Shown here: positions 11,390 through 56,815 of the stretch, in pieces
Layout: each line of letters starts with the position of its first letter
Position numbering within the stretch: position 1 is the stretch's first letter
Assembly (NCBI RefSeq): GCF_044324875.1
Contig: NZ_CP172185.1
Strand: one strand, 5' to 3'
Length of the DNA stretch: 64,000 nt
From: Escherichia coli
GTDB taxonomy: Bacteria; Pseudomonadota; Gammaproteobacteria; Enterobacterales; Enterobacteriaceae
The notes under the pieces: generated by a model
Seen by the model: only the letters and a program-made list of their open reading frames with translations
What the model was told of the DNA's origin: nothing
Databases searched by the model: none
Made by a program: the position numbers and the translations under genes

Positions 11390-11407
11390 ATGCGCTGATG
11401 TGATAAT

Positions 11408-11440
11408 GCCGGATGCGACGCTAGCTGCGTCTTATCCGGC
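11408..11440. repeat. REP element between convergent fucO and xni
   Basis: GCCGGATGCGACGCTAGCTGCGTCTTATCCGGC imperfect palindrome. Confidence 0.7.
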
Positions 11441-11493
11441 GTATAAGTTCATTAAATTCAATGTGTTGATAATCGTTTGCATCCGGCACGCCG

Positions 11494-23916: not shown

Positions 23917-25257
23917 ATGAGTTCTCAATTTACGACGCCTGTTGTTACTGAAATGCAGGTCATCCCGGTGGCGGGCCATGACAGTATGCTGATGAATCTG
24001 AGTGGTGCACACGCACCGTTCTTCACGCGTAATATTGTGATTATCAAAGATAATTCTGGTCACACCGGGGTAGGGGAAATTCCCGGCGGCGAGAAAATCC
24101 GTAAAACGCTGGAAGATGCGATTCCGCTAGTGGTGGGTAAAACGCTGGGTGAATACAAAAACGTTCTGACGCTGGTGCGTAATACATTTGCCGATCGTGA
24201 TGCCGGCGGGCGCGGTTTGCAGACATTTGATTTGCGGACCACTATTCATGTGGTTACCGGGATAGAAGCGGCAATGCTGGATCTGCTGGGGCAACATCTG
24301 GGGGTTAACGTGGCATCGCTGCTGGGCGATGGTCAACAGCGTAGCGAAGTCGAAATGCTCGGTTATCTGTTCTTCGTCGGTAATCGCAAAGCCACACCGC
24401 TGCCGTATCAAAGCCAGCCGGATGATAAATGTGACTGGTATCGCCTGCGTCACGAAGAAGCGATGACGCCGGATGCGGTGGTGCGCCTGGCGGAAGCGGC
24501 ATATGAAAAATATGGCTTCAACGATTTCAAACTGAAGGGCGGTGTACTGGCCGGGGAAGAAGAAGCAGAATCTATTGTGGCACTGGCGCAACGCTTCCCA
24601 CAGGCGCGTATTACCCTCGATCCTAACGGTGCCTGGTCGCTGAACGAAGCGATTAAAATTGGTAAATACCTGAAAGGTTCGCTGGCTTATGCAGAAGATC
24701 CGTGTGGTGCGGAGCAAGGTTTCTCCGGGCGTGAAGTGATGGCAGAGTTCCGTCGCGCGACTGGCCTGCCGACCGCAACCAATATGATCGCCACCGACTG
24801 GCGGCAGATGGGCCATACGCTCTCGTTACAATCCGTTGATATCCCGCTGGCGGATCCGCATTTCTGGACGATGCAAGGTTCGGTACGTGTGGCGCAAATG
24901 TGCCATGAATTTGGCCTGACCTGGGGTTCGCACTCTAACAACCACTTCGATATTTCCCTGGCGATGTTTACCCATGTAGCCGCTGCTGCACCGGGTAAAA
25001 TTACTGCTATTGATACGCACTGGATCTGGCAGGAAGGCAATCAGCGTCTGACCAAAGAACCGTTTGAGATCAAAGGCGGGCTGGTACAGGTGCCGCAAAA
25101 ACCAGGATTGGGCGTAGAAATCGATATGGATCAGGTGATGAAAGCCCACGAGCTGTATCAGAAACATGGGCTTGGTGCGCGAGACGATGCGATGGGAATG
25201 CAGTATCTGATTCCTGGCTGGACGTTTGATAACAAGCGCCCGTGCATGGTGCGTTAA
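23917..25257 (+). CDS. gudD: D-glucarate dehydratase GudD
   Basis: ORF from 23893, but [24 protein letters not shown] at 23917 with an AAAAAGGA RBS is the likely start. Confidence 0.9.
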
Positions 25258-25331
25258 GACAGAAAACCAAAACCGGCTTCATAAGAAGTCGGTTTGAGAT
25301 TACTGACGAAGTGGTTTACGGGGCCGGTTTT

Positions 25332-25433
25332 CCCCCTCGCCCTTTCAGGGAGAGGGGCGGGGTGAGGGTAATCATTCGCACTTGCGTTGGCCTGTTCCCC
25401 TCACCCTAACCCTCTCCCCGGAGGGGCGAGGGG
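25332..25433. repeat. GC-rich composite palindromic repeat between gudD and barA
   Basis: Two ~37-bp units in inverted orientation (25332-25368 and 25397-25433), each internally palindromic (CCCCTCGCCC...GGGTGAGGG type). Confidence 0.6.
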
Positions 25434-25497
25434 ACTGTCTGTGCTGCTCCCAGCATTGGCATTGGACGGAACCTATTTTGACTCGACAAGACGTCCA

Positions 25498-28254
25498 TTA
25501 CCCGAGAATTTTGCTGGCTTCGCGCGCGACATTATCCATCTCGTCCAACAGTTCCAGCAGCTCCGGCTCCAAATCTTCTTCTTTAGTACCGCTACGTAGC
25601 TGTTGTTCGATCAGCTGGCAGAGATTCTTCATACGCGGCACACCGCTATAGCCGCAACTGCCATGCAGTTTATGAATCAAATCAACCAGGCCTTCCGGGT
25701 TTTCTCCAACCAGCTGTTCCTCAACTTTGTTGCGAACTTCAGGCAGGAAATCGAGTAACATTTGCAGCATATCGCGCGCTAAATCGGTTTTTCCTGCTGC
25801 CTGGCGTAGTGCCAGTTGCCAGTCGAGGGTCGCATTCGGGTTCACCACAATTTCGTTGACTTCGGGCGTCACGACGCGAGACGAAATACCGCTGCCAGGC
25901 TTGTAGCGCAACAACAAATTATGCAATCGCTCTTCTTCAATCGGTTTCGCCAGATAATCGCTCATCCCTGCGCCAAGCAGCTTCTCTTTTTGCCCGGCCA
26001 TTGCATGCGCCGTTACCGCGATAACTGGCGTTTGTTGCTGATGGGGGAGCTGGTGGATGAGTTCGCAGGCCCGAATGCCGTCCATGTCCGGCATTTGAAT
26101 ATCCATTAAGATCAAATCGAACGGCATCTGTTTCGCCCGTTCAACCGCCTGATGCCCGCTATCGCAAAGTTCCACATGTTGCACCATATCTTCCAGCAAT
26201 GCGCCGATAAGTTTCAGGTTAGCGGGGTTGTCATCAACCGCCATGACTGTCATTGCCAGCTTACTTTCATCGGTTACAGGCAAAAGCGTGTTTTGTTTGT
26301 GATGACAAAATTCCGTCAGGGCAGGTAACAGGCGCGTAGGTGTTAATGGTTTCAGCAGACACGCGCCGATACCATCTTGCTTAAGTTTTTCAGCATTGAC
26401 TTGTGCATGGCAAGGAAGTGCCAGCATCAGGAAATCGGTCATCGATACCGCTTTCGCTAATCGCTCATGTTGCATTGTTAGCGGCTCGCGGAAGGTCACC
26501 GCAATGCCTAATAACATCATGTCGTAATGCGCGGGAGGCAGCGCGGAGAACGTTGGGCTATAAACCACTTCCAGCGGCGTTTCACTTAAAATATCCAGCG
26601 TGCATTGCGCTGCTGCGGAGTTTGGTTCGACATAGGCCAGGCGCTTGCCGGCGAGGCACTGGGTGGATGGCCCTTCGATAATAATGTTCGGGTTCAGATC
26701 GAGATTAATGTGGAACCAGAAAGTTGAACCGCGATTCGGCTGGCTATGGAACGAAATATCGCCGCCCATTTCATTAACCAGTTTTTGTGTAATCACCAGC
26801 CCCAGCCCGGTGCCACCATGACGGCGGGAAATACTGGCATCAGCCTGTCGGAAGGCCTGGAATAAGCGCGATTGATCGCGTTCAGGAATACCAATGCCGG
26901 TATCCCGAATCTGCACTTCAATCTGCACTTTAGTATTACTCAGCGCACGTTTTTCTACCAGAATATCAATGTTGCCATTCTCGGTGAATTTAATTGCATT
27001 CCCTACCAGGTTAGTGATGATTTGCTGTAATCGCAGTGGGTCGCCAATTACGTTATCGGGCACGTCGCTCTTAATATTGAGCGTCAGTTCCAGCCCTTTA
27101 TCGTGAGAAGAATGTGCCAGCAGGGTAACGACTTCATCCAGCGTGCTGCGTAGTGGGAATGGAATACTTTCCAGAATCAGCTTACCTGCTTCCAGTTTCG
27201 AGAAGTCGAGAACATCATTAATAATTGCCAGCAAATTATTTGCCGAACGTTCAATCGTATTCAGGTGATCGCGCTGCGTTGGTGTTAATTCTGTTTTCAG
27301 CGTCAGGCGGGTAAAGCCAATAACACCATTCAGTGGTGTACGCAGCTCGTGTGACATATTTGCCAAAAACTCGGATTTAATACGCGCCGCTTCCTGGGCG
27401 CGCTTTTTCGCCAGATCCAACTCAACGTTCTGAATTTCCATCTGCTCCAGCGTTTCACGCAGATCGGACGTCGCCTGGTCGATATTGTGCTGCATCTCTT
27501 CGTGATAAGCAGCCAGCGACATTGCCATCGAGTTGATACCGTTTTTCAGCATATCCAGCTCGCCGAGCATAAATCCTTCCACCCGGCTGTCGAGTTGCCC
27601 GCGACGGATGCGGTCGACGGTATTCACCATGTTGCGAATCGGACCGGTTACATCGCGCATTAAGCGCCAGCCAAAAATAAGCGCAATACCGATACAAAAC
27701 AGCATCATCACGCTGGAAATAAAGATCTCTTTATATTGCTGCAAGCGAACCGATTTAAGATCCAGCTCCAGCGCAATATATCCCAGCATATTTTGACTAT
27801 TTTTGGCATCGCTACTGGGCGATTCGTCGGGGGAGTAACTCTCAGAAATAATCGGCGTGCGGAGGATCATAATATCGCCGTCACGAGTGACAGTGAGCTG
27901 GCGAGGAAACGGCACGTTGCTGCCGAGCTGCATTGATGAAGGATCAAGATGAAAATTGGAGGTGACAAAGAGTCGGTTATTTTCATCATAAACCGAAATC
28001 GCGCGAACAATATCGGAATGGCGACGATGCAGTACGCTTATTAACTGACCGATAGATTCGCGATTTTGCAGGCTCATGCCATATTCAGTAGAAACTGCAA
28101 GCGGCTCAATAATGCTGGCTCCGGCATCTTCCAGTTGACGCTGCAAGTCGTTATAGCGATGCACAACGAAAAAGATACTCAGCAATAAACCAATAAGGAC
28201 GGTCGGTGCCAGGATCAGAATCATCATGCGTGCGCGCAGGCTGTAGTTGGTCAT
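25498..28254 (-). CDS. barA: hybrid sensor histidine kinase BarA
   Basis: 918-aa ORF with HAMP, HisKA/HATPase, receiver and HPt domains. Confidence 0.95.
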
Positions 28255-50211: not shown

Positions 50212-50325
50212 CGTGCTGCCGGATGATCCTGCCTACGGTTCTGGGCTGGGGACTTGTAAGCCTGATAAGACGCGTCAAGCGTCGTATCAGGCGCTGAATG
50301 TCGGATGTGGCGTGCAGCCTACAAA
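50212..50325. repeat. BIME-like cluster of REP elements between convergent ygcQ and ygcP
   Basis: Canonical REP GCCTGATAAGACGCGTCAAGCGTCGTATCAGGC at 50260-50292, flanked by partial GCCGGATG...CCTAC units. Confidence 0.75.
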
Positions 50326-56742: not shown

Positions 56743-56762
56743 CCATCAGCCCGGTCTTGTAG

Positions 56763-56794
56763 GCCTGATAAGACGCGTGAGCGTCGCATCAGGC
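56763..56794. repeat. REP element between cysI and cysH
   Basis: GCCTGATAAGACGCGTGAGCGTCGCATCAGGC palindrome. Confidence 0.8.
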
Positions 56795-56815
56795 AAGGCA
56801 AACAGTGAGGAATCT

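Follow-up and report, generated by a model that had tools for sequence, protein, structure and literature searches.

The GC-rich palindrome at positions 25332-25433 of the 64,000-nt stretch of Escherichia coli DNA analysed here (the window) is, judged by its match to a published consensus, a paired copy of the BoxC repeat, with a type-B-like unit and a type A unit inverted around a conserved spacer. The pair belongs to a longer composite that is itself the unit of repetition, and at the gudD-barA locus it is carried by a small minority of E. coli genomes. K-12-like strains have a segment with two REP sequences in its place. We consider it rather probable that the element is a MITE-like, non-autonomous, selfish and structure-forming repeat, present as an optional and unstable cassette in the 3' zone of barA and with no locus-specific function.

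The repeat has been described under three names: BoxC (Bergler/Bachellier, 1990s), PIT (Hoyne & Maher, 2000; Hoyne & Maher, 2002) and TMECO (Holder et al., 2015; PMC4666352). Earlier publications already cover this kind of element, its pairing, predicted structures and instability, and the family has been catalogued for about 30 years. Re-identification of a long-known repeat matters little in itself, and direct tests have not revealed a function for BoxC. What the population view brings out is that the ~200 bp at the 3' side of barA occur as discrete cassettes (BIME-1, the BoxC pair, or the hairpin left by its collapse).

The consensus of the family is 5'-CCCTCNCCC-N3-6-GGGNGAGGG-N3-GGGNGAGGG-3', which comprises a hairpin and a third G-rich block (PMC4666352). 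Exact matches were identified at 25334-25368 on the plus strand and at 25398-25432 on the minus strand. There are no others in the 64-kb window, and the pattern had no match in 100 dinucleotide-preserving shuffles of the window. The left unit reads CCCTCGCCC-TTTCA-GGGAGAGGG-GCG-GGGTGAGGG, and its G-rich half is a G4-type motif. The right unit, CCCTCGCCC-CTCCG-GGGAGAGGG-TTA-GGGTGAGGG, is identical in sequence to K-12 TMECO no. 23, a type A copy with one mismatch according to Table 1 of PMC4666352. In the published scheme the second loop is TTA in type A units and CCG in type B units (PMC4666352). The left unit has GCG, not CCG, in this loop and is thus a variant of type B; the same variant is also present in Escherichia sp. 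E1V33. The K-12 genome has 23 copies, with inverted pairs at five sites, and the pairs always combine type A with type B (PMC4666352). The window pair obeys this rule, with TTA on the right and the B-like GCG on the left. The gudD-barA site is not among the 23 K-12 copies because K-12 has BIME-1 there.

The palindrome lies between the gudD stop at 25257 and the barA stop at 25498, and there are no RefSeq features annotated under the matched region. In a blastn search of 5426 complete E. coli genomes with the 126-bp region, matches were found in 5418, and the median number of BoxC places per genome was 17 (range 1-29). Strains of phylogroup B2 (such as ST131, LF82 and ATCC 25922) have 1-5 places, compared with 13-29 elsewhere. 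This genome-wide count, which the preliminary description had proposed, shows that the unit is multicopy. Uniqueness in the genome and lack of conservation in related strains had been named together there as grounds against a repeat family, and the two came apart: the unit is far from unique, but this particular copy is indeed absent from most related strains.

The suggestion that the palindrome belongs to a dispersed intergenic family distinct from REP was borne out by the exact BoxC/PIT/TMECO matches. A scan of 25258-25497 for the REP consensus (GCCGGATGCGGCG.../GCCTGATGCG...) found no match, and the units lack the GTAG/CTAC signature. REP identity was rejected on these grounds. Consensus scans did locate REPs elsewhere in the window, at 11405-11487, 50255-50295 and 56758-56795. 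With published BoxC/PIT/TMECO elements the window copy shares exact consensus in both units, an intergenic position, about 15-25 copies per genome, the inverted pairing of an A with a B-like unit, a strain-variable locus, and collapse of the pair to a single hairpin.

A repeat search recovered inverted arms of 39 nt each at 25333-25371 and 25395-25433, which are 82% complementary and have 23 nt between them. Each arm contains its own short hairpin (25333-25343/25347-25357 and 25396-25406/25424-25434). The sequence and the recovered arms confirm that there are two inverted GC-rich units, each capable of forming a hairpin by itself. A large cruciform or stable RNA structure had also been proposed, and folding calculations bear this out as a prediction. 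As a single strand, 25325-25440 is predicted to form one long, nearly perfect hairpin. The predicted energies are -78.8 kcal/mol for the plus-strand RNA (z = -7.7), -70.7 kcal/mol for the minus-strand RNA (z = -6.65) and -35 kcal/mol for the DNA (z = -5.25), and none of the dinucleotide-preserving shuffles was as stable as the native sequence in any of the three folds. By motif computation, each unit is a canonical G4 motif as well.

Genomes that do not have the pair at gudD-barA still match the 126-bp query in one piece: their best alignment runs through the spacer and takes in 88-98% of the query. One-piece composites were identified at ygfF-gcvP, bacA-cca, entC-fepB, gldA-yijF, alx-sstT and hrpB-mrcB, and at a locus of Escherichia sp. 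E1V33. We aligned nine copies from eight loci, the window copy among them. The conserved core is 120 bp long (25326-25445 in the window, with edges GTTTTC... and ...GGGGACTGTCTG.GC) and has the order GTTTTC, unit B, spacer, unit A, GGGGACTGTC.GAGC. Seven of the eight loci have cores that are 81-92% identical in pairwise comparison; at hrpB-mrcB the spacer is shorter and the core is 71-75% identical to the others. Unit A is almost invariant across loci and unit B is variable. In the nine composites the second loop of the left unit is NCG or CTG and that of the right unit is always TTA. We infer from this conserved asymmetry that the copies descend from one composite and were not built separately from single units.

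The spacer (25369-25397 in the window, TAATCATTCGCACTTGCGTTGGCCTGTTC) is likewise conserved from locus to locus; eight of the nine copies have TTCGC and CTGTT unchanged. The window spacer, GCACTTGCGT, is the most diverged of the copies.

Conservation continues into outer arms on both sides of the core. The left outer arm of the window copy, GAGATTACTGACGAAGTGG..., was placed at 25296-25325. It is shorter than at other loci; its motif match covers 25296-25313, and likeness to the ygfF-gcvP copy reaches 25293. The right outer arm (25434-25480) is conserved at its start, ACTGTCTGTGC, and diverged further out. The ygfF-gcvP and gldA-yijF copies have 191 bp in common at 85% identity, and the window and ygfF-gcvP copies have 162 bp in common at 81% identity. 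The outer arms are inverted repeats of one another, and the E1V33 copy is predicted to form an end-to-end DNA hairpin of ~205 nt. In the window copy one arm is shortened and the other diverged. Three single type A copies of K-12 share a conserved 5' flank, which is related to the right arm of the composite.

An exact pattern combining the spacer with type A was searched for in 100,044 species representatives of bacteria and archaea, and was found only in E. coli E69 and Escherichia sp. E1V33. The composite appears restricted to Escherichia at this exact-pattern stringency, which diverged copies escape.

The allele-specific segment of the gudD-barA locus was found in 194 of the 5426 complete genomes (~3.6%), once per genome. 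A megablast search with 25000-25800 of the window (801 bp) gave at least 80% query cover in only 189 genomes. Other matches to the locus, sampled down the whole ranking, cover 75-77% in two pieces and have nearly the same total length. An alignment of seven strains locates the difference: 25279-25480, a segment of ~202 bp, is swapped in its entirety in K-12, ST131, O152:H23 and others. The swapped block starts within the terminator hairpin at the gudD stop and ends 17 bp before the barA stop. In its place, K-12-like strains and the other non-carriers surveyed have a degenerate REP of type Y and a REP of type Z, joined by an AT-rich linker, which is the arrangement termed BIME-1 (PMC3333891). 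The BIME-1 allele spans several lineages (K-12, O157, ST131, HS), and from this distribution it is probably the older state in E. coli, preceding the BoxC cassette at gudD-barA.

The full pair is present in ~180 of the 194 carriers. In 14-16 of them (e.g., strain JNEC-KY178) 70 bp are lost, with a computed breakpoint at 25344-25413 and CCCT microhomology at both ends, and a single hairpin, CCCCCTCGCCCTCTCCCCGGAGGGGCGAGGGG, is left. This collapsed allele fits the "palindrome effect" of paired copies described by Holder et al. (PMC4666352). The locus is hypervariable by several measures: there are 194 carriers among 5426 genomes, collapse in 14-16 of these, and a different cassette in most other genomes. 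The idea of a recombination hotspot is thus supported to the extent that the locus behaves as unstable, with the 70-bp deletion in some carriers and the ~200-bp segment swapped in ~96% of genomes. The long, G-rich quasi-palindrome may promote slippage or hairpin-mediated deletion as well as recombinational replacement of the DNA, and these processes would produce the collapsed and swapped alleles that are observed. As ~96% of genomes do not have the BoxC cassette here, it has no indispensable locus-specific function.

Instability is also central to an account in which the repeat is an adaptive DNA-structure device: an intrastrand purine-motif triplex, H-DNA, G-quadruplex or cruciform would stall replication and be kept for the local variability that it causes (Holder et al., 2015). 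Both units have the three-block architecture of a triplex in addition to being canonical G4 motifs. Published CD and NMR experiments found a stable triplex in single-stranded oligonucleotides, and TMECO loci were more variable than controls (PMC4666352). The oligonucleotides represented the type A and type B consensus, one-mismatch versions included, and not the gudD-barA sequences (PMC4666352). However, the duplex form gave no triplex signal, and an in vivo DMS footprint was negative, with non-B DNA not detected at a BoxC site (PMC4666352). The 70-bp collapse and the complete cassette swap at gudD-barA agree with such a device, but variability is equally expected of any long palindrome or mobile repeat. 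Triplex function leaves the conservation of the spacer and outer arms unexplained, and selection for mutability would be hard to sustain where 96% of strains do not have the element. We regard this account as unlikely.

Alternation of BoxC with REP or BIME sequences was also identified elsewhere. At gldA-yijF, the BoxC composite is present in 640 genomes and the others have a Y-REP, linker and Z-REP; both alleles have the same left boundary, GGGAGTTTGA, and the same right boundary, TCTGAAACTC. The composite occurs at bacA-cca in BL21 and strain C; in K-12-like strains that site has a BIME of three REPs, and in others one REP is left as a remnant. On the downstream side of gcvP, a Y-REP with an AT-rich linker stands beside the same terminator in strains that lack the ygfF side. 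At three of the loci (gudD-barA, gldA-yijF and bacA-cca) the composite alternates with another element and not with an empty site. The sole clean pair of filled and empty sites is at entC-fepB, where 2755 genomes are filled and most others are ~183-186 bp shorter; about half of the genomes are empty. A possible duplication of TTA at entC-fepB is the only candidate for a target-site duplication. Several copies are flanked by locus-specific inverted repeats. A simple target-site duplication was rejected as their explanation because these flanks are inverted, not direct.

At gudD-barA the outer arms are common to the two alleles. The flanks of the BIME-1 segment in K-12 resemble the BoxC outer arms of other loci, and an alignment of the right flank, ACTTTGTCACCAATCTGAAACCAGC, with ACCTTGTCATCAGTCTGAAGCCAGC from the E1V33 element scores 18, compared with 6.3 +/- 1.3 for shuffles; 0 of 2000 shuffles reached 18 (p<0.0005). 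The same comparison for the BIME allele of gldA-yijF gave a weaker result (p about 0.01). From these alignments, the core at gudD-barA seems to have been exchanged within a frame of outer arms common to both alleles. BoxC and BIME-1 are alternative cassettes here, each filling the ~200 bp between the barA stop and the terminator hairpin on the gudD side.

The likeness of the composite to BIME-1/RIP (Y-L-Z1, with an IHF-binding linker) is one of layout. Both have two different inverted palindromes, a linker of ~25-35 bp and a length of about 100 bp, and both occupy 3' intergenic positions by terminators. In the alternative alleles BIME-1 takes exactly the same position at gudD-barA, gldA-yijF and bacA-cca, with the same outer arms at gudD-barA. 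Unlike BIME-1, BoxC has neither GTAG/CTAC nor the REP consensus, its units show no sequence similarity to those of BIME-1, and no associated transposase is known. The BoxC spacer is GC-rich and has no IHF-like AT-rich motif.

The spacer could nonetheless be read as the recognition site of a nucleoid or topology protein, as IHF, gyrase and Pol I act at BIMEs. It is conserved (TTCGC...CTGTT in eight of nine copies, with a small palindrome, GCACCAGTGC, inside) although the long hairpin can do without it, and the composite is interchangeable with BIME-1, whose linker has an IHF site. We consider such a role very improbable. There is no known binding protein, common descent explains the conservation of the spacer equally well, and the greatest divergence of any spacer is that of the window copy itself.

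A more general proposal is that the BoxC and BIME-1 pairs are interchangeable cores of one terminator-proximal cassette system. The outer arms (TTTSAGATT.CTGACAAA... / ...TTTGTCA.CA.TCTSAAA) would be common to both, the sites by terminator hairpins would be the same, and the swapping of cores would depend on gene conversion guided by the arms or on a single-strand recombinase that serves both (e.g., TnpA_REP). We put this forward tentatively, as a possibility that we would not call likely. If it is true, the near absence of BoxC in phylogroup B2 would reflect loss of the swapping machinery. If the cassettes are equivalent protectors of RNA 3' ends, or are exchanged by a common mechanism, two repeat families thought to be unrelated would be linked, and the gudD-barA cassettes would be a natural allelic series for testing the action of BoxC. 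In the BoxC and REP literature surveyed, conservation of the spacer and outer arms and alternation of BoxC with REP/BIME by terminators are undescribed, though older literature may cover them. RepRanger (2025) makes no mention of BoxC. We view the alternation, the arms and the spacer as modest leads.

The common sites could instead point to a currently active MITE, moved in trans by an unidentified IS enzyme or by the REP-associated Y1 transposase TnpA_REP. A common enzyme would explain why BoxC and BIMEs occur at the same sites, with alternation at four loci. The element is conserved as a whole at eight or more loci, its asymmetric A/B layout points to a single master copy, and it has a long inverted-repeat architecture and both filled and empty sites at entC-fepB. 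B2 strains, with their 1-5 BoxC places as against 13-29, are reported to be without tnpA_REP (PMC3333891). However, B2 is only one clade, and phylogeny confounds the correlation. The BoxC units do not have the REP GTAG/CTAC signature, the termini differ among copies, and target-site duplications are inconsistent. In published BLAST searches the repeat was not associated with mobile elements (Holder et al., PMC4666352), and the 8-19% divergence between copies speaks against recent bursts. Current activity therefore seems unlikely to us.

The reading that we prefer is a MITE-like selfish repeat. With a 120-bp core that extends up to ~190 bp, below 300 bp, and with arms that are inverted repeats, the composite has the size and structure of a MITE. 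The pair forms the ~120-bp core of this dispersed palindrome, whose length is about 190 bp in some copies. Like ERIC/IRU, Correia/NEMIS and RUP, it is 120-190 bp long, forms a long inverted-repeat hairpin, is intergenic and multicopy, is polymorphic for presence and absence, and would be co-transcribed with its neighbours. Unlike these MITEs, it has no known cognate IS, no terminal consensus at its extreme ends and no consistent target-site duplication. That no transposase, conserved terminal sequence or consistent target-site duplication was identified counts against a selfish repeat. The divergence of 8-19% between the copies at different loci means that recent mobility is not shown, and loss and recombination alone could explain the polymorphism. 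Among the nine composites, compensatory base changes were found at 0 of 32 pairs, which gives no support to selection on the hairpin. The stems are nearly invariant, and the covariation test is thus uninformative on structural selection.

The convergent arrangement of the flanking genes was correctly described from the start. The gudD gene, for glucarate dehydratase, occupies 23917-25257 on the plus strand (from the list of open reading frames and the RefSeq annotation of matching genomes), and barA occupies 25498-28254 on the minus strand, with its stop codon at 25498-25500 (from the same list and annotation). An inverted repeat at 25273-25292, at the gudD stop, has the form of a terminator hairpin, CCGGCTTC-ATAA-GAAGTCGG; on the left it is bordered by an A-run and on the right by TTT. 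The composite lies between this hairpin and the barA stop codon.

A terminator scan of K-12 in the barA direction identified two sites, a weak one just after barA and a strong one beside the gudD stop, which has a 10-pair hairpin and a T-rich tail, TGGTTTTCTG. Since the main K-12 terminator adjoins gudD, the cassette falls between it and the barA stop, in the barA 3' zone, and is probably within the 3' untranslated region of barA. The window hairpin at 25273-25292 has several substitutions relative to other alleles, which leave a G-U pair in the gudD-sense RNA and an A-C mismatch in the barA-sense RNA. By comparison of the alleles, it appears to be an allele-specific variant of the K-12 bidirectional terminator. 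The scan of 25150-25650 in the window allele called no sites, and the 25273-25292 hairpin was uncalled as well.

Termination by the palindrome itself, another of the roles first suggested for it, did not survive this analysis. The resemblance to an intrinsic terminator lies in the GC-rich hairpin downstream of convergent genes. However, the BoxC stem is ~40 bp long rather than 5-12 bp, and no T/U run follows the hairpin on either strand (the tails are ACTGTCTG on the plus strand and AAAACCGG on the minus strand). Holder et al. [quoted passage not shown] Given the lack of a U-tract, the negative scan and the negative published assays, we reject the intrinsic terminator.

A dedicated cis-acting RNA element for barA and/or gudD, whether terminator, attenuator or processing site, is a wider form of this idea, and we judge it quite improbable. 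The position would suit: the genes on either side converge, and the element directly follows the barA stop and precedes the terminator hairpin. The predicted RNA structure is extremely stable on both strands, and three single type A units of K-12 are also in short convergent gaps, of 100-150 bp (tauD-hemB, zntA-tusA and yjdP-phnP). The evidence against termination applies here too (no U-run, the negative scan, no promoter or terminator activity in the earlier experiments), and 96% of strains have no such element at the locus. There is also no matching Rfam family and no covariation.

Stabilisation of transcript ends, which was among the first suggestions, is plausible by analogy with the REP/BIME element found at this position in other strains, and would be one of the likely structural effects of the repeat. 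RNA of the barA 3' untranslated region, or gudD read-through RNA, would form a near-perfect hairpin of ~100 nt on crossing the element. REP/BIME hairpins block 3'-to-5' exonucleases. The BoxC hairpin could act in the same way as an exonuclease barrier and protect the mRNA upstream of it.

A search of Rfam at permissive E-values returned only sub-threshold miRNA precursors, the best being MIR1846 (37.1 bits, with a threshold of 77.5). Identity with an miRNA precursor was rejected, as these are sub-threshold eukaryotic matches of a kind generic for long GC-rich hairpins. Three small open reading frames on the plus strand (25242-25409, 25382-25651 and 25387-25599) were set aside as artefacts of the GC-rich repeat, and RefSeq has no annotation there. 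Such small-ORF or miRNA-like predictions are likely to arise spuriously from the BoxC hairpin, which probably also gives rise to artefacts in assembly and PCR.

The number of BoxC places per genome is strongly lineage-dependent. Our search of E. coli genomes returned 1-5 places in ST131, LF82, ATCC 25922 and similar strains, and 13-29 in K-12, BL21, O157, O111 and others. The gene for the REP-associated transposase, tnpA_REP, is reported to be missing from B2 strains (Ton-Hoang et al., PMC3333891). A link between low BoxC copy number and the missing tnpA_REP is possible, as an association that is confounded by phylogeny. Plasmid-class records hold 38 of the 83,535 BoxC match places. Two small records came up repeatedly, NZ_CP074792.1 (154 kb; 1627-1664) and NZ_CP135245.1 (373 kb; 155723-155768); each carries one unit-length match of 38-46 bp, which may be a true plasmid copy or a chromosomal fragment.

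In K-12, single type-A units occur in very short intergenic gaps between convergent genes (tauD-hemB, zntA-tusA and yjdP-phnP). Their common 5' flank, GAGCGCGATCGGTC or similar, is related to the right arm of the composite. The yjdP-phnP region also contains decayed remnants of additional BoxC units, so that some of the "single" copies are composites that have eroded. Inside the cryptic prophage CP4-6 (between yagA and yagE), one type-B copy adjoins a partial inverted unit.

The terminator hairpin adjoining the gudD stop codon is present as different alleles in the window (25273-25292) and at the K-12 gudD-barA locus (L001, 10008-10033). The stem of the window allele is CCGGCTTC/GAAGTCGG. A G-U pair completes this stem in the gudD-sense RNA, but in the barA-sense RNA it is interrupted by an A-C mismatch. 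The K-12 hairpin, in contrast, has a perfect stem of 10 pairs and was terminator-like by scan. Because of this difference in the stem (A-C mismatch versus perfect pairing), barA termination may differ between the alleles.

Several BoxC or BIME cassettes are directly bordered by inverted repeats, specific to each locus, which duplicate the stem of the neighbouring terminator. These were seen at the K-12-like gldA-yijF locus (L014:355-500), at the composite locus of Escherichia sp. E1V33 (L013:2640-2835) and at K-12 gudD-barA (L001:9840-10045); examples are GGGAGTTTGAGA[...]TCTGAAACTCCC, GCCGGCTTCAGA[...]TCTGAAGCCAGC and GCCGGTTTGAGA[...]TCTGAAACCAGC. Direct target-site duplication was rejected, as the repeats are inverted. 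They resemble the product of outward palindrome extension by template switching, or of insertion into the centre of a pre-existing palindrome.

Each BoxC unit has four tracts of G3+ in its G-rich half, which thereby forms a canonical G-quadruplex motif (window 25347-25368 on the + strand and 25398-25420 on the - strand). The type A unit includes GGGTTAGGG, the vertebrate telomere repeat. Published NMR data, obtained on a DNA oligonucleotide only, favour a triplex over the G-quadruplex (PMC4666352).

On the + strand, the repeat is traversed by mechanically called open reading frames, 55-89 codons long (window 25242-25409, 25382-25651 and 25387-25599). They probably arise artefactually from the GC-rich palindrome, but gene finders could annotate them as hypothetical proteins.

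Canonical REPs elsewhere in the window, distinct from the element at 25.3 kb, had been noted in the preliminary description and were confirmed. They comprise a BIME-1-like pair at 11405-11487, past a gene end at ~11388, in which the AT-rich linker TTCATTAAATTCAATG joins a REP to a partial REP, and single canonical REPs at 50255-50295 and 56758-56795.
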